A stretch of 64,000 nt of DNA. Source: Eledone cirrhosa. Its lineage: Eukaryota. The position numbers and the translations under genes are program-made. The stretch lies in assembly GCA_964016885.1 (NCBI GenBank), contig OZ024761.1:27032001-27096000 (forward strand). The letters are read 5' to 3'. Of the stretch, positions 13 to 58,532 are shown piece by piece (position 1 is the stretch's first letter; every line of letters begins with the position of its first letter). Under the pieces are notes generated by a model that saw nothing but the letters and a program-made list of their open reading frames with translations, did not search any database and was not told where the DNA came from.

Positions 13-53
<41 letters not shown>

Positions 54-556
54 TCAGCCAAATTAAAGAACGTAAACATTATTACAAGTAGTGTAAACAT
101 GAATTAAAGAACATAAATGTACCACCAAGAAGGCTGTTTCAAGATATGCACTTCAAGAAGAAATACAACATGTGCTTACGTCTACGACATAATTATAGCT
201 GGAAAGGACATTCATTGAACATGAACAATCTACTAGAGATAGAAGACAACAGAAACGAATATATGTTATGATATTAAATATATTTCTTATACTGTCATGT
301 CTTTTCTTTAAAACGTTTGAATCTCAATAAGGTGGAACAGATATTAAATACATTTGTTATATCATTATACTTTAGCTTTAACTTTACTTATTATTTCTAA
401 CTCTTATTAGAAAGAATACAAACTTAATAAAATCCTATATCTGTATAAATATGTGTGTTTGTATTAAAGTAAATAATAATATGCATGTTGACGAGTTGTA
501 AAAACCAAGGAAGTCAATCTACAGTTCTACACTAACTCAGACGCCCCCCCGCCCAC

Positions 557-639
557 AAAAATAGACATGTTTCGTCTAATAAACGAATGTCAAATAATTG
601 TTTCGGAAATACCGATGTAACACTAAATATATTACCGGT
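557..639 (-). ncRNA. Candidate small RNA gene, cassette A (snRNA/SL-RNA-like, ~80 nt)
   Basis: The minus strand reads ACCGGTAATATATTTAGTGTTACATCG|GTATTTCCGAAACAATTATTTGACATTCGTTTATTAGACGAAACATGTCTATTTTT. It has a 5' hairpin (ACCG/CGGT plus GTAATA/TGTTAC), a U-rich tract, a 3' hairpin and a T5 run. Inferred starts in the other copies: 7992, 15099, 22250, 29346, 36478, 43596, 50716, 57809. Transcription is inferred. Confidence 0.4.
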
Positions 640-659
640 GCAACTATGTCAATTAAGCC

Positions 660-702
660 TTTTATAAACTCACTCTAGTCATTTCAAATCGTGTTGAGAG
701 TA
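660..702 (-). promoter_or_regulatory. PSE-like element (702-677) plus TATAAAA (666-660) upstream of cassette A
   Basis: TACTCTCAACACGATTTGAAATGACT lies at -63..-38, and TATAAAA begins 27 nt upstream of the conserved block. The spacing is identical in B and C. Confidence 0.45.
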
Positions 703-975
703 ACGGGAATAAGAAAAAATAAACCGTTTGCCGAAGTTTCTAAATTTGTTAAAAATAATAGCGAAATCCGTGTCCAATGTATAATAAACCGGGACATTCA
801 CTGAACATGACGAATCTACTACAGATAGAAGACATCAGAAACGACCATCCTACCTGAAATATTATATGTTATTTTAAATATATTTCTTTTACTATTATGT
901 TTTTTTTAAAAAGCTTGAGTCTGAATAAAGTGTAGAAAACTACAATTTAACTGTTGTTATATCATTATATTTTAG

Positions 976-1083
976 TTCAAATCCCGCCGAGGTTGACTTT
1001 GCCTTTCATCCTTACGGGGTCGATAAAATAAAGTACCAGTAATGCACTGGGTAACTGCTGGCCTTGTGCCTAAAGTAGAAACA
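976..1083 (+). mobile_element. 5'-truncated tRNA-derived SINE (Octopus-type) with a 12-bp target-site duplication; present only in copy 1
   Basis: The TSD ATTATATTTTAG is at 964-975 and 1084-1095, and copies 2-9 have a single empty site. The element begins with B-box-like (G)TTCAAATCCC. Its body, CGCCGAGGTTGACTTTGCCTTTCATCCTTACGGGGTCGATAAAATAAAGTACCAGT..GGCCTTGTGCC, matches my recollection of the abundant Octopus SINE. Confidence 0.88.
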
Positions 1084-1189
1084 ATTATATTTTAGATTCA
1101 ACTTAATAATAAAATCCGATATGTGTATAGATATAATGTGTGTGAAAATATAATAATAAACTAGTTATACACTAACGCAGAGGACATAA

Positions 1190-1268
1190 GAAATGTTACC
1201 TCTAACGACCGACTGCCAAACAGACTAAGGCTCAGATATACCGGTGTAAAGCTAAAAATGTTAACGGT
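1190..1268 (-). ncRNA. Candidate small RNA gene, cassette B
   Basis: The minus strand reads ACCGTTAACATTTTTAGCTTTACACCG|GTATATCTGAGCC(T/A)TAGTCTGTTTGGCAGTCGG. The 27-nt block aligns ungapped with A, C and D; the 3' end is uncertain. Starts in the other copies: 8503, 15610, 22761, 29857, 36989, 44107, 51227, 58320. Confidence 0.38.
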
Positions 1269-1288
1269 GGAACAATTTCAGTTTACCC

Positions 1289-1331
1289 TTTTATAGACAC
1301 ACTCCAGTCATTTCAAATCGTGTTCAGAGTA
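1289..1331 (-). promoter_or_regulatory. PSE-like element (1331-1306) plus TATAAAA (1295-1289) upstream of cassette B
   Basis: TACTCTGAACACGATTTGAAATGACT at -63..-38; TATAAAAG at -27. Confidence 0.45.
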
Positions 1332-1844
1332 CCGGGAATAAAATATACAAAAAAACATTTCCCGAAGTTTCTAAATCTGTTAAAGATAACAGCCAAATCT
1401 CTCAGTCTGTCTCCGATGTGTAATAAACGGTGACACACATATATATATAGAAAGAGAGAAACAGATATGTTTATATATATATATATTTATATGTGTGTGT
1501 GTGTATATTAGTGAATATAATAGTATGTATATAAATATGCGTGTAATTAAATGTATATTATTCATATACAGGTATTCCGCTGTATTTGCGTGTGTTATGG
1601 TCCTAGAGTACCCGAGTATATTGAAAAACCGCGAACATTGGAGGTGGTCCATAAAAGTGCCTATAAACCTCAAAATATAACGTAAACTATAATAAACAAT
1701 AGAGGGATCGCCTTTTGCGAAGGGGCGTCCAATAGACCGGCAAATACGATATATTGTGATTAGTAATTTAGCGTTAAAACAATATATATTGTCATGAAAT
1801 ATATAAATAGTTTTGACTGCTCTTTCTAGCATACTCTAGAAAAA

Positions 1845-1854
1845 ACCGGAAGTG
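1845..1854 (+). promoter_or_regulatory. Canonical ETS/GABP-type site ACCGGAAGTG in the spacer between the divergent cassettes B and C
   Basis: Exact match to the ETS class I consensus, present in all 9 copies. A single motif only, so function is unproven. Confidence 0.35.
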
Positions 1855-2129
1855 GAGAAAATTGAAAAACTTCTTCTTTTTCTTCCTCTAACTTTTCAAA
1901 CAAAAGAAAATTTTATGTAAACAAAAACGAAATTTTTGCCACGAACGATAACTCGTCTCTGACTTAAATCCAAATTTTGGATAAAAAAAGCGTGTATGAA
2001 GTTTTCATATACACACTTGTTATTACTAGCTAGTCCTTATTTTATTTTGTTTTGGGGTCTTTGACTCCTATTTCTAGCATGACAGACCTTTTCCTGTTGT
2101 TCACTATGCATGTATGCATAAATACATGG

Positions 2130-2510
2130 ATGTATGTACATATATATGTATATATATATAAACTTTAATATAATCTTACAATAAATATTTGCTCTAGGGT
2201 ATTTTATATATATATATATTATATACATAAAATCTTTATCGAGCTGTCTTCGGATTTTAGTTTTCACATTTATTATTACTATTTATATATATATAAATAT
2301 ATATATGTATGCGTTTATATATGTATATGATTATATATACATTTATATAGATTTAAATGTATGGAAAAGTATGGTTATATAGATACCTGTATATATATAT
2401 ATATTATAATATATATATATTTATATATATTTCTTTATATATATATGTGTGCATATATAAACACACACACACAAACACACACACATATATATATATATAT
2501 ATTTCTTTAT
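2130..2510. repeat. Compound (TA)n/(CA)n low-complexity tract (other simple tracts at 1440-1510, 3099-3142, 5084-5155), repeated in each unit
   Basis: Directly visible; the source of the I/Y/T/H-rich spurious ORFs. Confidence 0.9.
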
Positions 2511-2669
2511 ACACTAGCAATATATTGAGTACATTTTATTTAATGTGGTTTCCACCTGACAGGGTGAGTCACAGCTAATGGCATCTATTGCCCAGAGTAG
2601 AAGATTTAACTGCTATGTCTAGCAGGTTTGGAATCTAATATTTTCCAAACAATTTTCCTTTACAACCTC

Positions 2670-2695
2670 CACTATGAACTTGATTTCAAATTACC
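2670..2695 (+). promoter_or_regulatory. PSE-like element upstream of cassette C
   Basis: CACTATGAACTTGATTTCAAATTACC at -63..-38. TTGATAAT occupies the TATA position and is followed by GGTAAACTGAAAT, identical to cassette B. Confidence 0.42.
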
Positions 2696-2732
2696 AGGCA
2701 GTCGGTTGATAATGGTAAACTGAAATATCTAC

Positions 2733-2805
2733 ACCGGTAACTTAATTAGTGTTACACCGCTATTGTTCAAACATAATCTATTTGGCATTCCTTAACGAAA
2801 GGTAG
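2733..2805 (+). ncRNA. Candidate small RNA gene, cassette C
   Basis: ACCGGTAACTTAATTAGTGTTACACCG|CTATTGTTCAAACATAATCTATTTGGCATTCCTTAACGAAAGG, with a GTAAC/GTTAC stem; GT is replaced by CT. Starts in the other copies: 9966, 17083, 24214, 31330, 38461, 45576, 52684, 59793. Confidence 0.36.
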
Positions 2806-3098
2806 TTTGTTGTGTCGTCTTCAATAGAGTATGTATACATACACGTATTCCTAAACAGTTTGACATTTATTCATAAGAGGTAATGGTTTTATTTAGACCT
2901 CGTCTCTTTTAGAATATATATACTCACAACACATCCATAAATTAATGAATTTCTCTATAATATGATATTAACGTTTTTATTTTTTACGAAAAAGCGTATT
3001 GTATATGTAGTTATACATGCATTAAATTTAATATAAACACTCCGTTTGGGGCACAAATATTAATTATATTATTTTACATACACATCCATTATACAAAA

Positions 3099-3144
<46 letters not shown>

Positions 3145-3473
3145 ATTTATTTGTATCTTTGTGTAACTAGAATTACAGGTGATTCGCCCCACCTCCAAGT
3201 AATTGATACTGTGACAAGACGGTTTCAGTTGGGTTTTATTCCAGAATTAAAGCAACTGTAAATTGTAAATAAAATTATGAACGAAAACACTGTTGCAGCA
3301 TACATATAAACTTTATTGGCATATTAGAATTGTTTCAATATCGATATCTTTGGGTAGAATCATATATAGAAACAGAGATAGATTGATAGTGTGTGTGTTA
3401 TTTTTCACCTGAAATCAATATGCAAGCTGGCCCTTGTGTCTTCATTTTAAAGCGACATATTTCTACCTCCCGG

Positions 3474-3511
3474 TGATTTGAACTCAGTTTCAAGTTACTC
3501 GATAGTATAAT
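3474..3511 (+). promoter_or_regulatory. PSE-like element (3474-3499) plus TATAAT (3506-3511) upstream of cassette D
   Basis: TGATTTGAACTCAGTTTCAAGTTACT at -65..-40, preceded by TCCCG as in A and B. Confidence 0.4.
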
Positions 3512-3538
3512 GAAGCAGAGAGACTATAAAAACGCTAC

Positions 3539-3610
3539 ACCGGTGGCATATTTAGTTTTACACCGGTACGACGTGCATGAAAGAGGTAATGTTTTATTTG
3601 TCTTCTGTGT
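3539..3610 (+). ncRNA. Candidate small RNA gene, cassette D
   Basis: ACCGGTGGCATATTTAGTTTTACACCG|GTACGACGTGCATGAAAGAGGTAATGTTTTATTTGTC, with a perfect 7-bp stem ACCGGTG/CACCGGT; the 3' end is uncertain. Starts in the other copies: 10768, 17883, 25036, 32134, 39267, 46380, 53478, 60593. Confidence 0.38.
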
Positions 3611-3719
3611 TACAGGATAACACTAGTTTAATTTTTTTAATTTATCCTACATGTTTGTAATATATATTCTCAACATAGCTATGATTTTATCTCAATTAGT
3701 AATTTCAACACTTCGGAGG

Positions 3720-3895
3720 TTACTGCTCACATTTCATCTCTTCCACTAAGACACTCTCCACAGACTTTCCTCTCCTCGTATCATCACCTAATGTTGTGTG
3801 AATCGCCACAAAGCCAAAGTTTCTCATTTCTAGCCCTTCTTGTCCAGAATGTCAGCTCCATGGAACTCCCTGTTTACTTCTTTCTGTAACAACAA
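3720..3895 (+). mobile_element. Decayed 3' fragment of a non-LTR retrotransposon ORF2 (CR1/L2/Jockey-like), present in every unit
   Basis: Frameshifted translation gives HRLSS..SPNVV..SRMSAPWNSLFTS, resembling the C-terminal 'S(F/Y)FPRT..LWNSLP' motif of these LINEs. The region is locally higher in GC. Confidence 0.5.
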
Positions 3896-4987
3896 GGTTT
3901 ACAATACTTGAAGTACATTGAATTTGGTTTCGGTGTATCTATAATAAAAACAAACCCACCCCAAGCGTGTGTGTAAAATAAACGCAAGGTTTGACCGAAC
4001 AAGAATATAAAATTTATTCCTTCTGACATTTACATCTTTTACATGGTATTATATTTTCATCATTACAGTGTCGAGAAAATGAAGTATCAGTAAAGAACTG
4101 GGATTATTGCTGGAATTATACTAAAATTAGAAAGAATTATATGAAGGGTTTTATGTACATTAAACAATAAAATGACTACTACACTTAACGACACTTTGAT
4201 ATTAATAGACATATTAGTCTTCATAGTAACTTAAGAGTTTACTAGCTAGTTCATTTATGTGTGTTTGTCTTATCTGTAAAGAGAGTTTGAAATGGTATGA
4301 AAAGGTGTTGAATTGAAGCATGTTTATTTATATGCTGATAGTCATACCACGAGGGAGAGAAAAATAAAGCTTTAAATGGTATGACTACGTGTTCAAATTA
4401 AGCAAGTTTCTCATAGTATGAGGATAAAAAAAAATTAACGTTATAATAAGTTGATTCGAAAGCCAACCACTGCATTCCCTAGTTCTATGTCTTACCACTA
4501 GACTATAAGGACCTAGACAATTTTTTTGTGAATCTATATCTATATAAACTTATTTTCAGTCTAACAATAAAATAGCTTTAAATGTGTTAATTTTCACTAC
4601 ATATTTGTTGGTCTGTAGGTGGGCGTGTGGGTAGTAGTGGTTTATCTATGCATGCTTTATGTATGTATAGATTTGGGGGTAGTGTTTCAATCTTCTTTAT
4701 CTAAAATTAAAAGTATTTATATTTTTTTTTTAAATTAAAAGAACGCTCTCTATCTTCTGGGCTACCCGGGGCCACTATTATCTCGAAGCCACCTTTTTAG
4801 TTCCCCCTACGCCCGAACCTTCACTACCTAGCTACACAACCATTACCTACGATACAACATCACTTTACCACACGTCTACCAAGCTGCCGTAATTCTACTG
4901 TGCAAATTTGATATATTTAAATCTAATTTAGCATTTCTTCATTGAAGAACCATTTAGGGTTTACGGCATAAGCGAAAAAAAAAATAT

Positions 4988-6855
4988 TTACTATTTCATT
5001 AGCTCTGGCAGGTATCGAAAACCTCATATATAGATTCATTTTAATTTCACCTACGTCAGAATCACGCATACATATTATTAATTTAAAAAAAAAAAAAAAA
5101 TCATTTTCAGCGACAAAATACATACCTCCACTCGAGATATGTGTGTGTGTGTATATTTTTATTATTATTCTGAACTGTAGTTTTAATTAAAAAAATATAT
5201 ATTATACTATTTCCTGTGTCCTCGCAGATATTGCAACTACATCTCTCTAGATTCATTTAAATACATTGCATTTGACTTACGTGAAATTAAGTATCATATA
5301 ATTACTTTTTCAAATTTTGTTTTCAAGTATCAAAATAAAAATACATTAGTAAGGTTTTCCACCTCATAAATGTGTGGTGGTTATAGACACTTAACTATTG
5401 TTATAGGGCTGTCGTATTTACAACTATGTGGGCATCTAATCCTTCCATCCTGCTGGTCTAAAAACAGCCAATTTATTTTTCCAGAGAGAGACATTTATTA
5501 TGACTTTAAACGCTAATTTTTCACTTCACTTACGATTCCTTTTTCCTCTCTTTAGATTGAATAAACAAAACCCTTTTCCGTCTACAATTATATTCAACGT
5601 AGCTCATATCAGTCTTCACAGTAAAGATTTTGCTACATCTCATTCAAGCTGGTATGATAGTAACCACAAAGTAAAGTGTTTAGCTCAACATTTATTCCGT
5701 AGTAAGTGTCATAAGAAAGGTTTGTCTGTCTAAAAACCTAAGTAGATTTCAAATTTATTGCTAATTAAACAAAACTTTAAAATAATCCATACTAAAGCCA
5801 CAACCATTTATTATCTACGTCTCACCCGAAGAAAAAAAACGATCAAATTATTACGAGGAGTGTAGACAGATGGATAAAGCTAATAAACAATTAATTTATA
5901 CATATGCATGTACGTATTGTGTTTAAATATACTCCAACACAGACGGTGCCTACGAAAAACATAACATTACCGCCTATGAACAAATTTTGGCGTAATACTT
6001 ACTAAATCTATTTTACCATTTGCTTAATGAACAAGCACATACATTGTTTGATATAATGAAAAAAAAAATATATATATATATACATATTACTATTTCATAA
6101 GCTCTGGCAGGTATCGAAAACCTCATATATAGATTTATTTTAATTTCACTTACGTCGAAAACATATACATAATTATTTTTTTATAATTTATCGATTGGGT
6201 TTCCAATCTCAGAAATATCTCCACTAGAGATGTGTGTGTTTCTCTTTATTATTCCTTTGAAATGATTTTTAGTCCTGGTAGATGTTGAAATCCCATCAAT
6301 AGATTCATTTAAATATATTTTATTTGACTTACGTGAATTTAAAAAATGATATAATTATCTTTAAAATTTTCCTTTCCAGTACAAAAATAAAAATACATTA
6401 GTATGTATTTCAGTCACACAAATGCGTTGGTTTCATAGACACTTAACTATTGTTGCAGGGATGCCGTAAATAGCGTCATGTGGGCATTTATACTACCCGG
6501 TTGAGACAATCCCAGCCTCCTAGTATACAAATAGCCGATTAATTTTGCGAGAGAGAAAGAGATACTTTTATTATGTCTTTAAACGTTACTTTTGCGATTG
6601 AACTTTTCCTTTTTCCTCCCTTTAGACTGAATAAACCCAAACATTTTACGGCTACAATTCTATTCAACATTACGATATCTGCTTCAATCTGTTATTGGTG
6701 TGGTGGAGGAGTAGAACACAAAATAAAATGTCGAGTTAATTATTTACTCCGTAAAAAGTGTCAAACGGTGGCACACTGGTATAAGATTTGGTGGTATAAA
6801 CAAACTAACAAATAGATTTCAAATTTATCGGCAGCTAAACAAAACTTTAAAATAA
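4988..6855. repeat. Second old internal duplication: E (4988-5785) vs F (6087-6855)
   Basis: Colinear anchors GCTCTGGCAGGTATCGAAAACCTCATATATAGATT, CTCCACT(C/A)GAGAT, TAGATTCATTTAAATA, ATTTGACTTACGTGAA, ATAGACACTTAACTATTGTT, ATGTGGGCAT, CTTTAAACG, TAGATTTCAAATTTAT and AAACAAAACTTTAAAATAA. Confidence 0.92.
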
Positions 6856-7223
6856 GCAATAATGAAGACAATTCAGACCAAATCTCACTTCCATATTAGC
6901 CTTTCAATTCAGTAGACCCTAATTACTTTATTAATAATCACAAAACAAGGCCACTTATTCACACGAGTCCAGACAAAATATTCATTTAACAAGAATTACT
7001 ACAACGATAGTGCAAGAAAATCGTTGTTTCTAAATCAGAGAACGTTTCTATAACAAACACAAGCGTATTAAAAGTAACAGGAATATTCATATTGCATAGA
7101 ACCAGGAAATAACTGCTATCAAATAGATGTTCTAGTGGCTAAGAACTTAATAGTTCCAGTTGTAATTGTGTTACACATATTCAGTAAGTATTTGCTAATT
7201 GAAATTATACTTTAAGGTATACT

Positions 7224-14462
<7,239 letters not shown>

Positions 14463-50085: not shown

Positions 50086-50130
<45 letters not shown>

Positions 50131-53050
50131 TCAGCCAAATTAAAGAACGTAAACATTATTACAAGTAGTGTAAACATGAATTAATGAACATAAATGTACC
50201 ACCAAGAAGGCTGCCTCAAGATATGCACTTCAAGAAGAAATACAACATATGCTTACGTCTACGACATAATTATGGCTGGAAAGGACATTCATTGAACATG
50301 AAGAATCTACTAGAGATAGAAGACAACAGAAACGAATATTTGTTATGATATTAAATATATTTCTTATACTGTCATGGCTTTTCTTTAAAACGTTTGAATC
50401 TCAATAAGGTGGAACAGATATTAATTACATTTGTTATATCATTATACTTTATCTTTAACTTTACTTATTATTTCTAACTCTTATTAGAAAGAACACAAAC
50501 TTAATAAAATCCTATATCTGTATAAATATGTGTGTTTGTATTAAAGTAAATAATAATATGCATGTTGACGAGTTGTAAAAACCAAGGAAGTCAATCTACA
50601 GTTCTACACTAACTCAGACGCCCCCCCGCCCACAAAAATAGACATGTTTCGTCTAATAAACGAATGTCAAATAATTGTTTCGGAAATACCGATGTAACAC
50701 TAAATATATTACCGGTGCAACTATGTCAATTAAGCCTTTTATAAACTCACTCTAGTCATTTCAAATCGTGTTGAGAGTAACGGGAATAAGAAAAAATAAA
50801 CCGTTTGCCGAAGTTTCTAAATTTGTTAAAAATAATAGCGAAATCTGTGTCCAATGTATAATAAACCGGGACATTCACTGAACATGACAAATCTACTACA
50901 GATAGAAGACATCAGAAACGACCATCCTACCTGAAATATTATATGTTATTTTAAATATATTTCTTTTACTATTATGTTTTTTTTTAAAAAAGATTGAGTC
51001 TGAATAAAGTGTAGAAAACTACAATTTAACTGTTGTTATATCATTATATTTTAGATTCAACTTAATAATAAAATCCGATATGTGTATAGATATAATGCGT
51101 GTGAAAATATAATAATAAACTAGTTATACACTAACGCAGCCGACATAAGAAATGTTACCTCTAACGACCGACTGCCAAACAGACTATGGCTCAGATATAC
51201 CGGTGTAAAGCTAAAAATGTTAACGGTGGAACAATTTCAGTTTACCCTTTTATAGACACACTCCAGTCATTTCAAATTGTGTTCAAAGTACCGGGAATAA
51301 AATATACAAAAAAACATTTCCCGAAGTTTCTAAATCTGTTAAAGATAACAGCCAAATCTCTCACTCTGTCTCCGATGTGTAATAAACGGTGACACACATA
51401 TATATATAGAAAGAGAGAAACAGATATGTTTATATATATATATATATATGTGTGTATATTAGTGAATATAATAGTATGTATATAAATATGCGTGTAATTA
51501 AATGTATATTATTCATATACAGGTATTCCGCTGTATTTGCGTGTGTTATGGTCCTAGAGTACCCGAGTATATTGAAAAACCGCGAACATTGGAGGTGGTC
51601 CATAAAAGTGCCTATAAACCTCAAAATATAACGTAAACTATAATAAACAATAGAGGGATCGCCTTTTGCGAAGGGGCGTCCAATAGACCGGCAAATACGA
51701 TATATTGTGATTAGTAATTTAGCGTTAAAACAATATATATTGTCATGAAATATATAAATAGTTTTGACTGCTCTTTCTAGCATGCTCTAGAAAAAACCGG
51801 AAGTGGAGAAAATTGAAAAACTTCTTCTTTTTCTTCCTCTAACTTTTCAAACAAAAGAAAATTTTATGTAAACAAAAACGAAATTTTTGCCACGAACGAT
51901 AACTCGTCTCTGACTTAAATCCAAATTTTGGATAAAAAAAAGCGTGTATGAAGTTTTCATATACACACTTGTTATTACTAGCTAGTCCTTATTTTATTTT
52001 GTTTTGGGGTCTTTGACTCCTATTTCTAGCATGACAGACCTTTTCCTGTTGTTCACTATGCATGTATGCATAAATACATGGATGTATGTACATATATATG
52101 TATATATGTATAAACTTTAATATAATCTTACAATAAATATTTGCTCTAGGGTATTTTATATATATATATATTATATACATAAAATCTTTATCGAGCTGTC
52201 TTCGGATTTTAGTTTTCACATTTATTATTACTATTTATATATATATAAATATATATATGTATGCGTTTATATATGTATATGATTATATATACATTTATAT
52301 AGATTTAACTGTATGGAAAAGTATGGTTATATAGATACCTGTATATATATATATATTATAATATATATATATTTATATATATTTCTTTATATATATATGT
52401 GTGCATATATAAACACACACACACAAACACACACACACATATATATATATATATTTCTTTATACACTAGCAATATATTGAGTACATTTTATTTACTGTGG
52501 TTCCCATGGGCAGGGTGAGTCACAGCTAATTGCATCTACTACCCCGAGTAGAAGATTTAACTGCTGTGTCTAGCAGGTTTGGAATCTAATATTTTTCAAA
52601 CAAGTTTCCTTTACAACCTCCACTATGAACTTGATTTCAAATTACCGGGCAGTCGGTTGATAATGGTAAACTGAAATATCTACACCGGTAACTTAATTAG
52701 TGTTACACCGCTATTGTTCAAACATAATCTATTTGGCATTCCTTAACGAAAGGTAGTTTGTTGTGTCGTCTTCAATAGAGTATGTATACATACACGTATT
52801 CCTAAACAGTTTGACGTTTATTCATAAGAGGTAATGGTTTTATTTAGACCTCGTCTCTTTTAGAATATATATACTCACAACACATCCATAAATTAATGAA
52901 TTTCTCTATAATATGATATTAACGTTTTTATTTTTTACGAAAAAGCGTATTGTATATGTAGTTATACATGCATTAAATTTAATATAAACACTCCGTTTGG
53001 GGCACAAATATTAATTATATTATTTTACATACACATCCATTATACAAAAA

Positions 53051-53089
<39 letters not shown>

Positions 53090-56000
53090 TTGTATCTTTG
53101 TGTAACTAGAATTACAGGTGATTCGCCCCACCTCCAAGTAATTGATACTGTGACAAGACGGTTTCAGTTGGGTTTTATTCCAGAATTAAAGCAACTGTAA
53201 ATTGTAAATAAAATTATGAACGAAAACACTGTTGCAGCATACATATAAACTTTATTGGCATATCAGAATTGTTTCAATATCGATATCTTTGGGTAGAATC
53301 ATATATAGAAACAGAGATAGATTGATAGTGTGTGTGTTATTTTTCACCTGAAATCAATATGCAAGCTGGCCCTTGTGTCTTCATTTTAAAGCGACATATT
53401 TCTACCTCCCGGTGATTTGAACTCAGTTTCAAGTTAGTCGATGGTATAATGAAGCAGAGAGACTATAAAAACGCTACACCGGTGGCATATTTAGTTTTAC
53501 ACCGGTACGACGTGCATGAAAGAGGTAATGTTTTATTTGTCTTCTGTGTTACAGGATAACACTAGTTTAATTTTTTTAATTTATCCTACATGTTTGTAAT
53601 ATATATTCTCAACATAGCTATGATTTTATCTCAATTAGTAATTTCAACTCTTCGGAGGTTACTGCTCACATTTCATCTCTTCCACTAAGACACTCTCCAC
53701 AGATTTTCCTCTCCTCGTATCATCACCTAATGTTGTGTGAATCGCCACAAAGCCAAAGTTTCTCATTTCTAGCCCTTCTTGTCCAGAATGTCAGCTCCAT
53801 GGAACTCCCTGTTTACTTCTTTCTGTAACAACAAGGTTTACAATACTTGAAGTACATTGAATTTGGTTTCGGTGTTTCTATAATAAAAACAAACCCACCC
53901 CAAGCGTGTGTGTATAATAAACGCAAGGTTTGACCGAACAAGAATATAAAAATTATTCCTTCTGACATTTACATCTTTTACATGGTATTATATTTTCATC
54001 ATTACAGTATCGATAAAATGAAGTATCAGTAAAGAACTGGGATTATTGCTCGTCTTATACTAAAAGTAAAAAGAATTATATTAAGGGGTTTATGTACATT
54101 AAACAATAAAATGACTACTACACTTAACGACACTTTGATATTAATAGACATATTAGTCTTCATAGTAACTTAAGAGTTTACTAGCTAGTTCATTTATGTG
54201 TGTTTGTCTTATCTGTAAAGAGAGTTTGAAATGGTGTTGAATTGAAGCATGTTTATTTATATGCTGATAGTCATACCACGAGGAAGAGAAAAATAAAGCT
54301 TTAAATGGTATGACTACGTGTTCAAATTAAGCAAGTTTCTCATAGTATGAGGATAAAAAAAAATTAACGTTATAATAAGTTGATTCGAAAGCCAACCACT
54401 GCATTCCCTAGTTCTATGTCTTACCACTAGACTATAAGGACCTAGACAATTTTTGTGTGAATCTATATCTATATAAACTTATTTTCAGTCTAACAATAAA
54501 ATAGCTTTAAATGTGTTAATTTTCACTACATATTTGTTGATCTGTAGGTGGGCGTGTGGGTAGTAGTGGTTTATCTATGCATGCTTTATGTATGTATAGA
54601 TTGGGGGTAGTGTTTCAATCTTCTTTATCTAAAATTAAAAGTATTTATATTTTTTTTAAATTAAAAGAACGATCTCTATCTTCTGGGCTACCCGGGGCCA
54701 CTATTATCTCGAAGCCACCTTTTTAGTTCCCCCTACGCTCGAACCTTCACTACCTAGCTACACAACCATTACCTACGATACAACATCACTTTACCACACG
54801 TCTACCAAGCTGCCGTAATTCTACTGTGCAAATTTGATATATTTAAATCTAATTTAGCATTTCTTCATTGAAGAACCATTTAGGGTTTACGGCATAAGTG
54901 AAAAAAAAAATATTTACTATTTCATTAGCTCTGGCAGGTATCGAAAACCTCATATATAGATTCATTTTAATTTCACCTACGTCAGAATCACGCATACATA
55001 TTATTAATTTAAAAAAAAAAAAAAAATCATTTTCAGCGACAAAATACATACATCGATAGGGTTTCAAATCTGAGAAATACCTCCACTCGAGATATGTGTG
55101 TGTGTGTTTGTGTATATTTTTATTATTATTCTGAACTGTAGTTTTAATTAAAAAAATATATATTATACTATTTCCTGTGTCCTCGCAGATATTGCAACTA
55201 CATCTCTCTAGATTCATTTAAATACATTGCATTTGACTTACGTGAAATTAAGTATCATATAATTACTTTTTCAAATTTTGTTTTCAAGTATCAAAATAAA
55301 AATACATTAGTAAGGTTTTCCACCTCATAAATGTGTGGTGGTTATAGACACTTAACTATTGTTATAGGGCTGTCGTATTTACAACTATGTGGGCATGTAA
55401 TCCTTCCATCCTGCTGGTCTAAAAACAGCCAATTTATTTTTCCAGAGAGATACATTTATTATGACTTTAAACGCTAATTTTGCACTTCACTTATGATTCC
55501 TTTTTCTTCTCTTTAGATTGAATAAACAAAACCCTTTTCCGTCTACAATTATATTCAACGTAGCTCATAGTCTTCACAGTAAAGATTTTGCTACATCTCA
55601 TTCAAGCTGGTATGATAGTAACCACAAAGTAAAGTGTTTAGCTCAACATTTATTCCGTAGTAAGTGTCATAAGAAAGGTTTGTCTGTCTAAAAACCTAAC
55701 AAGTAGATTTCAAATTTATTGCTAATTAAACAAAAGTTTAAAATAATCCATATTAAAGCCACAACCATTTATTATCTACGTCTCACCCGAAGAAAAAAAA
55801 CGATCAAATTATTACGAGGAGTGTAGACAGATGGATAAAGCTAATAAACAATTAATTTATACATATGCATGTACGTATTGTGTTTAAATATACTCCAACA
55901 CAGACGGTGCCTACGAAAAACATAACATTACCGCCTATGAACAAATTTTGGCGTAATACTTACTAAATCTATTTTACCATTTGCTTAATGAACAAGCACA

Positions 56001-57184
56001 TACATTGTTTGATATAATGAAAAAAAAAATATATATATATATACATATTACTATTTCATAAGCTCTGGCAGGTATCGAAAACCTCATATATAGATTTATT
56101 TTAATTTCACTTACGTCGAAAACATATACATAATTATTTTTTTATAATTTATCGATTGGGTTTCCAATCTCAGAAATATCTCCACTAGAGATGTGTGTGT
56201 TTCTCTTTATTATTCCTTTGAAATGATTTTTAGTCCTGGTAGATGTTGAAATCCCATCAATAGATTCATTTAAATATATTTTATTTGACTTACGTGAATT
56301 TAAAAAATGATATAATTATCTTTAAAATTTTCCTTTCCAGTACAAAAATAAAAATACATTAGTATGTATTTCAGTCACACAAATGCGTTGGTTTCATAGA
56401 CACTTAACTATTGTTGCAGGGATGCCGTAAATAGCGTCATGTGGGCATTTATACTACCCGGTTGAGACAATCCCAGCCTCCTAGTATACAAATAGCCGAT
56501 TAATTTTGCGAGAGAGAAAGAGATACTTTTATTATGTCTTTAAACGTTACTTTTGCGATTGAACTTTTCCTTTTTCCTCCCTTTAGACTGAATAAACCCA
56601 AACATTTTACGGCTACAATTCTATTCAACATTACGATATCTGCTTCAATCCGTTATTGGTGTGGTGGAGGAGTAGAACACAAAATAAAATGTCGAGTTAA
56701 TTATTTACTCCGTAAAAAGTGTCAAACGGTGGCACACTGGTATAAGATTTGGTGGTATAAACAAACTAACAAATAGATTTCAAATTTATCGGCAGCTAAA
56801 CAAAACTTTAAAATAAGCAATAATGAAGACAATTCAGACCAAATCTCACTTCCATATTAGCCTTTCAATTCAGTAGACCCTAATTACTTTATTAATAATC
56901 ACAAAACAAGGCCACTTATTCACACGAGTCCAGACAAAATATTCATTTAACAAGAATTACTACAACGATAGTGCAAGAAAATCGTTGTTTCTAAATCAGA
57001 GAACGTTTCTATAACAAACACAAGCGTATTAAAAGTAACAGGAATATTCATATTGCATAGAACCAGGAAATAACTGCTATCAAATAGATGTTCTAGTGGC
57101 TAAGAACTTAATAGTTCCAGTTGTAATTGTGTTACACATATTCAGTAAGTATTTGCTAATTGAAATTATACTTTAAGGTATACT
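50074..57184. repeat. Repeat unit copy 8 (divergent internal segment at ~51450-55760)
   Basis: Direct comparison; clustered substitutions and indels. Confidence 0.97.
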
Positions 57185-58532
57185 AAACTCACAAACGTTT
57201 ATATATATATATATATATATGCCTCAGCCAAATTAAAGAACGTAAACATTATTACAAGTAGTGTAAACATGAATTAAAGAACATAAATGTACCACCAAGA
57301 AGGCTGCCTCAAGATATGCACTTCAAGAAGAAATACAACATATGCTTACGTCTACGACATAATTATGGCTGGAAAGGACATTCATTGAACATGAAGAATC
57401 TACTAGAGATAGAAGACAACAGAAACGAATATTTGTTATGATATTAAATATATTTCTTATACTGTCATGGCTTTTCTTTAAAACGTTTGAATCTCAATAA
57501 GGTGGAACAGATATTAATTACATTTGTTATATCATTATACTTTATCTTTAACTTTACTTATTATTTCTAACTCTTATTAGAAAGAACACAAACTTAATAA
57601 AATCCTATATCTGTATAAATATGTGTGTTTGTATTAAAGTAAATAATAATATGCATGTTGACGAGTTGTAAAAACCAAGGAAGTCAATCTACAGTTCTAC
57701 ACTAACTCAGACGCCCCCCCGCCCACAAAAATAGACATGTTTCGTCTAATAAACGAATGTCAAATAATTGTTTCGGAAATACCGATGTAACACTAAATAT
57801 ATTACCGGTGCAACTATGTCAATTAAGCCTTTTATAAACTCACTCTAGTCATTTCAAATCGTGTTGAGAGTAACGGGAATAAGAAAAAATAAACCGTTTG
57901 CCGAAGTTTCTAAATTTGTTAAAAATAATAGCGAAATCTGTGTCCAATGTATAATAAACCGGGACATTCACTGAACATGACAAATCTACTACAGATAGAA
58001 GACATCAGAAACGACCATCCTACCTGAAATATTATATGTTATTTTAAATATATTTCTTTTACTATTATGTTTTTTTTAAAAAAAGATTGAGTCTGAATAA
58101 AGTGTAGAAAACTACAATTTAACTGTTGTTATATCATTATATTTTAGATTCAACTTAATAATAAAATCCGATATGTGTATAGATATAATGTGTGTGAAAA
58201 TATAATAATAAACTAGTTATACACTAACGCAGCCGACATAAGAAATGTTACCTCTAACGACCGACTGCCAAACAGACTATGGCTCAGATATACCGGTGTA
58301 AAGCTAAAAATGTTAACGGTGGAACAATTTCAGTTTACCCTTTTATAGACACACTCCAGTCATTTCAAATTGTGTTCAAAGTACCGGGAATAAAATATAC
58401 AAAAAAACATTTCCCGAAGTTTCTAAATCTGTTAAAGATAACAGCCAAATCTCTCACTCTGTCTCCGATGTGTAATAAACGGTGACACACATATATATAT
58501 AGAAAGAGAGAAACAGATATGTTTATATATAC

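Follow-up and report, generated by a model that had tools for sequence, protein, structure and literature searches.

Four paralogous cassettes in a 7.12-kb tandem repeat: possible lineage-specific small-RNA genes with spliced-leader-like signs

The window analysed here, a stretch of DNA of 64,000 nucleotides, contains short repeated cassettes which a sequence-only reading had likened to spliced-leader (SL) RNA genes, with a 27-nt leader, a GT donor paired with the 5′ end and a U-rich, Sm-like tract downstream, and the question is whether the cassettes are such genes or represent something else. Repeat comparison established that the window consists of nine head-to-tail copies of a unit of approximately 7.12 kb, the ninth being truncated by the window end, and that units 1 to 8 differ from one another at 6 to 75 positions over about 7050 to 7130 aligned bases. 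Unit 8 (50127-57219) is the most divergent, with 55 to 75 differences from the other copies, followed by unit 1 (50-7396). The G+C content of the window is approximately 30%, and AT and AC microsatellites are present. Each unit harbours four cassettes that are paralogs of one another; A and B lie on the minus strand, C and D on the plus, and all four are present in each of the nine units: a block pattern gave 36 matches (4 × 9) versus none in 100 shuffles, this pattern having been written from the first unit's own four blocks and being circular for unit 1. Our preferred reading, held tentatively, is that the cassettes may represent a family of small-RNA genes of snRNA type that is specific to the lineage. 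The first unit and its cassettes are laid out as follows.

50 to 7396, no strand assigned: first full tandem unit, from repeat comparison.
609 to 641, minus strand: block of cassette A, with 27 nt (639-613) followed by GTA, and a palindromic hexamer repeated at a 23-nt period.
557 to 608, minus strand: 3′ part of cassette A, with a T-rich tract (599-590), a hairpin (591-564) and a T5 run (561-557).
1238 to 1270, minus strand: block of cassette B, with 27 nt (1268-1242) followed by GT (1241-1240), and a T5 run inside.
1172 to 1237, minus strand: 3′ part of cassette B, with a T-rich tract (1226-1216), a second GT (1199), a second T-rich tract and an AG ending at 1172.
2731 to 2827, plus strand: cassette C, with its block (2733-2759) followed by CT, a tract (2775-2785), a second GT (2802) and an AG ending at 2827.
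3537 to 3615, plus strand: cassette D, with its block (3539-3565), GT (3566), a second GT (3586), a tract (3590-3600) and an AG ending at 3615.

The 27-nt blocks were confirmed at the positions previously assigned to them, as were the GTA that follows in A, B and D, the CTA (not GT) that follows the block of C in all nine copies, and the coordinates claimed for the four T-rich tracts. Across the four cassettes, the region far upstream has 2 invariant columns out of 25, an upstream element (-75 to -41) has 14 out of 35, the spacer 7 out of 27, the block 20 out of 33, the stretch just past the block none out of 14 and a later AG-GTA segment 5 out of 17, a profile that indicates constraint on the block and on the upstream element. 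The drop in conservation that had been described just after GTA is thus present (from 20/33 to 0/14), but conservation resumes from about +45 to +100. Of the 113 sites that vary among the array copies none lies within the four blocks, a weak signal given that approximately 1.7 were expected there, and six variable sites occur among the nine copies in the 70 nt after the GT of B. In cassette B of unit 7, three changes lie in and next to the T-rich tract. The A and B units are 74-75% identical, in an alignment that reaches well past the cassettes. The repeats, the conservation profile and the spacings are direct observations, and the gene-like frame of the earlier proposal, namely an upstream element, a short 5′ block, a tandem array and persistence in a related organism, was upheld.

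This persistence was seen in contigs of one sample of the related organism, here organism B (runs X2 to X4, which are a single sample and in which contig depths are not copy numbers), as these span cassettes A and B alike, with differences scattered along them, at least five of which fall within 1209-1228 (among 40 of 188 rows). Within the main organism-B contig the first U of the B tract is changed, and among the array copies that tract is altered in one of nine. None of the runs listed for 540-1420 is annotated as RNA. A further run, X1, which is guessed to be RNA, covers 8 of the 30 bins, chiefly at the SINE-like piece below and outside the cassettes, and is silent on expression.

974 to 1088, no strand assigned: SINE-like fragment belonging to an interspersed repeat of very high copy number, from summed contig depth.

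The piece is a very high-copy repeat, as its summed contig depth is about 1e7, as compared to hundreds to thousands alongside; we take it to be an octopus SINE, and the octopus or cephalopod label used here rests on that assumption. The insertion, in the B unit, is missing from one organism-B contig (joint 975-1107), and an older, decayed copy of the SINE-like repeat lies at 4055-4142. A metagenome scan with the full block pattern gave no matches, and 69 metagenome matches to an 18-mer were attributed to chance, as none of the 69 has the upstream hexamer at two or fewer mismatches and none has a flank match at E <0.2.

The small-RNA reading draws first on the region upstream of the blocks, where the following features were located.

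680 to 714, minus strand: upstream element of cassette A, putatively PSE-like, from column conservation and PSEA likeness.
661 to 666, minus strand: TATAAA at -27 of cassette A, from motif position.
1309 to 1343, minus strand: upstream element of cassette B, 94% identical to that of A over -72 to -41.
1290 to 1295, minus strand: TATAAA at -27 of cassette B, from motif position.
2658 to 2692, plus strand: upstream element of cassette C, without TATA at -27.
3462 to 3498, plus strand: upstream element of cassette D, partly palindromic (16/26).

Between A and B the upstream element is kept at 94% identity versus 78% for the block, and its centre lies approximately 54 nt before ACCG, the putative start; animal PSE centres are placed 50-55 bp upstream in the excerpt of PMC1761439. 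The 21-mer of A from -64 (703-683) agrees at 9 of 11 positions with the Drosophila U6:96Ab PSEA over that site's 5′ half (sequence from PMC4227766), a half-match in the top three of the unit's 14458 positions, although the reference is from Drosophila, not a mollusc, and the comparison was picked after the likeness was noticed. The same half agrees at 7, 6 and 5 of 11 positions in B, C and D, respectively, and the full 21-mer matches A at only 11/21 (top 1%), while the gap between the PSEA-like segment and TATA is approximately 14 bp as compared to 12 in Drosophila. Insect PSEs evolve fast. The TATA that had been noted for the cassettes together with a PSE is present, as TATAAA at -27, in A and B but not in C and D. 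A joins TATA to a terminal T-run (T5 at +79 to +83), which follows its hairpin directly, whereas in B, which also has TATA, a T5 run falls at +12 within the block; B, C and D have no terminator where A has one. In sense orientation neither AATAAA nor ATTAAA occurs in the 581 nt after the start of A or the 481 nt after that of B. Of the 3′ hairpins previously noted in A and C, that of A is clear (591-564, 11-bp), but that of C is no better than shuffles (z +1.2 to +1.6). Over eight cassette folds z ranged from -2.0 to +1.6, with A giving the best value of about -1.9 and no cassette clearly surpassing its shuffles, and a pre-miRNA was rejected as no long stable hairpin was found among them. The T5 run of A at 561-557 is possibly a Pol III stop, a pyrimidine tract or an Sm match of the SLIDR type.

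These properties liken the cassettes to SNAPc-dependent genes, be they of the U6 type with PSE and TATA or of the Pol II snRNA type, in the distance of the upstream element, the TATA of A and B, the purine start, the hairpin and T5 of A and the lack of a polyadenylation signal in A and B, and set them apart in that no Rfam family is matched, C and D are without TATA and B has an internal T5. In favour of small-RNA genes we counted the element at PSE distance, the TATA of A and B, the missing polyadenylation signals of A and B and the hairpin with T5 of A, together with the invariance of the blocks, the coverage in organism B and the lack of an Rfam or protein relative; counted against were weak folds, no covariation, weak PSEA likeness and no terminator in B to D, and the downstream GT and AG that fit splicing. 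The Rfam search of the whole 64 kb, SL models included, yielded no match at the gathering score, none of 27 weak matches (E up to 10, first unit) falls on any cassette, and a tRNA scan of the window found no genes.

From these features we infer the identity of the promoter, transcription with its start and end, the polymerase and the function of the RNA, in a scheme that would run as follows. The conserved element some 55 nt upstream is predicted to bind SNAPc, transcription would begin at ACCG, and the predicted product would be a non-polyadenylated RNA of approximately 80-100 nt for which use as a spliced leader is improbable. The constrained first 31 nt, with a copy of the palindromic hexamer at either end, may form a protein-recognised 5′ hairpin or act as an intragenic promoter element, and the GT at +28, as part of the hexamer motif, need not be a splice donor. 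Cassette A would be the most complete copy, possessing the element, TATA, the 3′ hairpin and T5, while C (without TATA and with the second hexamer broken) and B (with an internal T5 and a variable 3′ part) may be diverged or decaying variants. A lineage-specific gene of snRNA type is known from Drosophila, the LU snRNA (PMC4053861, in part). Should this reading be correct, the array would hold an undescribed octopus small-RNA family without an Rfam match, and the upstream element would be the first candidate cephalopod PSE, useful for locating small-RNA genes and for U6-type expression tools. Among known small RNAs, U7 snRNA is similar in its short length (as predicted here) and in having a 3′ hairpin downstream of a T-rich tract of non-canonical sequence, as in A; it was rejected as the cassettes contain no U7-type Sm site within two mismatches and no Rfam U7 match, and the 5′ part of a cassette is about twice the length of that of U7.

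A rather unlikely alternative is that each cassette combines a promoter with the short first exon of a non-coding Pol II transcript spliced in cis, the T-rich tracts then being intron interior or pyrimidine tract. The exon would be either the 27-nt block or approximately 70 nt ending at the second GT, joined to a local acceptor, an arrangement that we consider doubtful but that draws on signals in the downstream block, of which two copies were found without a leader.

2854 to 2929, plus strand: leaderless second copy of the downstream block, with tract, GT (2880) and pyrimidine-AG ending at 2912.
5917 to 5984, minus strand: further leaderless copy of the downstream block, from a profile match.

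The former is in the training set of the later profile, and an earlier profile built without it matched it at E 0.07; the latter is outside the training set and matched at E 1.5e-4. Both are also without a promoter. Five of the six copies of the downstream block retain the second GT within an AG-GTA context (B 1199, C 2802, D 3586 and, in the leaderless copies, 2880 on the plus and 5970 on the minus strand), A having lost it, and it ranks 16 to 43 among 847 GTs, above the first GT of A (190) and B (74); the first GT of D ranks 10. These ranks come from generic splice matrices that were not trained on octopus. The presence of a second GT with a pyrimidine-AG downstream makes local cis-splicing possible as well, and the intervals from the first GT to the AG, 81 nt in A (612-532), 70 in B and 50 in D, are of short-intron size, in keeping with the local cis-splicing that the sequence-only reading had itself named as a refutation. 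With the generic matrix the AG of D ranks first of 703, but the homologous AGs of the leaderless copy (2912), C, B and A rank 28, 96, 138 and 468. The cassettes resemble the first exon and short intron of a spliced lncRNA in having a GT after a short exon, a pyrimidine-AG 50-81 nt on and a TATA at -27 that suits an mRNA-type promoter, and differ in the weak acceptors and missing polyadenylation signals of A and B. A mirtron was rejected as seven GT-AG intervals gave z of -1.4 to +0.7 with no stable hairpin, which also counts against the cis-splicing alternative.

There is likewise no common open frame, as stops occur in A, B and C. One frame yields LHRY-like words in all four cassettes; it stays open throughout D and over part of A, where it ends in a stop, and contains stops within B and C, and the substitutions of one frame looked synonymous. 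A profile of the frame from A and D, searched against 1.84 billion proteins, returned a single match, P0001, a six-fold repeat ORF with weak stretches and a single member, which is not a credible relative. A protein-coding exon was rejected, the shared frame being broken by stops and P0001 being the only match.

The cis-splicing alternative gains from intervals elsewhere in the unit, in a paralog pair, E (4918-5800) and F (6003-6870), which are 67% identical over 941 nt. On the minus strand the pair contains four GTRRGT..AG intervals of 50-59 nt (5054-5005, 5280-5222, 6153-6104 and 6332-6275), which have strong donor-like starts and are more conserved than the sequence on either side. E and F also share, on the plus strand, a conserved pyrimidine-AG followed by AATAAA (5555, 6625), the AG being lost in one array copy.

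The preferred small-RNA reading has also to be weighed against the unlikely case that the cassettes are DNA-level elements of a macrosatellite, either paired factor-binding sites or an old duplicated repeat, which yield no discrete RNA. A 9-nt direct repeat makes up the block: the palindrome ACCGGT and its neighbouring bases, nine in all, return with a 23-nt period, completely in D and nearly so in A, B and C, and in C and D the repeat reaches 3 nt upstream of the supposed start, for which DNA sites are better suited than an RNA stem. The upstream element is itself partly palindromic (14-16/26), the cassettes have no stable fold, the alignment of the A and B units continues far past the cassettes, and the downstream block recurs, as seen above, in places lacking both leader and promoter. 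Palindrome scores of 14 or more are, however, frequent, being reached in 702 of 7214 windows of the unit; conservation ends abruptly at +31, and in A the order of element, TATA, purine start, hairpin and T5 is spaced as in a small-RNA gene.

The hexamer repeat bears equally on the SL question. In that reading A, B and D would be SL RNA genes that supply a capped 27-nt leader for trans-splicing, from the GT to acceptors in unrelated pre-mRNAs, with C a donor-less pseudogene, and we judge it improbable; an octopus SL trans-splicing system with A, B and D as a polymorphic family of 27-nt leaders, which would be the first mollusc case and one more independent origin among animals, is an equally remote prospect. 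The likeness to the SL RNA genes of flatworms, nematodes, Hydra and chaetognaths lies in a conserved 5′ segment that ends exactly at GTA, with a GGTA junction in A, B and D, in a donor within a predicted stem (A and D), in a T-rich tract downstream, in a tandem array with concerted evolution, and in lengths (27 nt, and 80-100 nt overall) inside known ranges. SL exons have WWG ends and a GGTA junction (excerpt of PMC3795323), while flatworm leaders end in AUG, and tandem arrays and donor-less pseudogenes occur among their genes (PMC12582326, in part). Those of the cassettes end in TCG (A) or CCG (B, C and D), neither WWG nor AUG. The GT represents the last two bases of the second ACCGGT copy, and as this palindromic copy both provides the GT and pairs with the first, two of the SL-like signs amount to one fact. 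A 6-bp 5′ stem was predicted by RNAalifold, with two-sided changes in none of its six pairs and 2 of 24 cells unpaired. The claimed pairing of the 5′ end with the donor held in D (ensemble probability 0.89-1.0) and variably in A (0.36-0.98), but hardly in B (at most 0.12), and in C it ranged from 0 to 0.61, without covariation.

The Sm-like tracts were no more uniform. None of the four cassettes has a canonical RAU4-6GR site downstream of the donor. UVUUUGG, given in the available part of PMC12582326 as the core conserved among the SL RNAs of flatworms, occurs in B and C alone, 19 nt after the junction, and in 1.8% of random 55-nt windows; its presence in both is one ancestral event and the best point of the sequence-only reading, although C is without a donor, and B, the sole cassette with both GT and this core, hardly forms stem I and has a variable tract. 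A passes the SLIDR default, which in the excerpt of PMC7986045 consists of GT and then AT4-6G 20-60 nt on, at its T5 run, with AT4-6G 50 nt past the donor (5.2% by chance), and D passes neither this nor the flatworm core. The Schistosoma mansoni site and leader start put forward in the sequence-only reading agree with the same excerpt of PMC7986045, and the tract of D matches that site at 9 of 12 positions (P about 0.05), the same tract elsewhere matching at 7-8 of 12. The first tract of D has been removed by a 22-nt deletion, and its remaining tract is the counterpart, in the alignment, of another T-rich tract, the second, at +72 to +85 of A, B and C; it is not homologous to the tracts named for those cassettes, so the four cannot be treated as one Sm-like site, and a pattern loose enough to fit all of them is found in 17% of random windows. 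The second T-rich tract is on average 14-45% unpaired, and when it was examined the tracts were given as 57-86% paired. A stem enclosing it looked compensatory by eye and was rejected, as it needs register shifts and is broken in eight of nine B copies.

An Sm site common in position and rule is lacking, each cassette fitting a different rule at a different site. Together with the derivation of the GT and its pairing from the hexamer, the failure of the WWG rule and the local acceptor-like AG 50-81 nt downstream, this leaves the SL-specific parts of the interpretation unsupported. C has no GT in any copy, the stem of B hardly forms and no Rfam SL model is matched, and the cassettes were not filed as SL RNA genes because two of the features listed for that class were looked for and were absent.

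The literature offers little precedent. SL trans-splicing is patchy among animals (PMC12460157 and PMC2481426, each in part), SL-like matches in molluscs were left undecided and excluded in the excerpt of PMC3795323, a spliced leader goes unmentioned in the available part of an octopus Iso-seq and small-RNA study (PMC9699675), and the listings and abstract openings searched contain no report from cephalopods or other molluscs. Six short cassette motifs are absent from 24,410 characters of the supplement text of PMC9699675, and five short motifs retrieved unrelated papers only, among the matches listed, from full-text literature. Were the SL reading true after all, molluscs would join the patchy list of trans-splicing animals, with a bearing on the frequency with which snRNA-type genes give rise to SL RNAs, and octopus mRNA 5′ ends would need to be re-read.

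Several further features of the unit were noted. E and F were considered as fifth and sixth cassettes and rejected, as the four-cassette profile misses both and only one of eight pairwise tests (B versus F) stood out; F at 6730-6830 on the minus strand has a faint likeness to the promoter and block start of B, equalled by 2 of 200 controls. The A and B units share a 53-nt stretch at approximately 89% identity (792-853 and 206-257), an AG-GT site at 853-854 adjoins it, and a 14-nt piece at A's copy of it is kept in organism B and lost in the window. Between the divergent B and C cassettes, a GC-richer patch at 1600-1860, which may be a shared enhancer, contains a short hairpin near 1705-1730 and, near 1845-1855, what we take to be an ETS-like motif.
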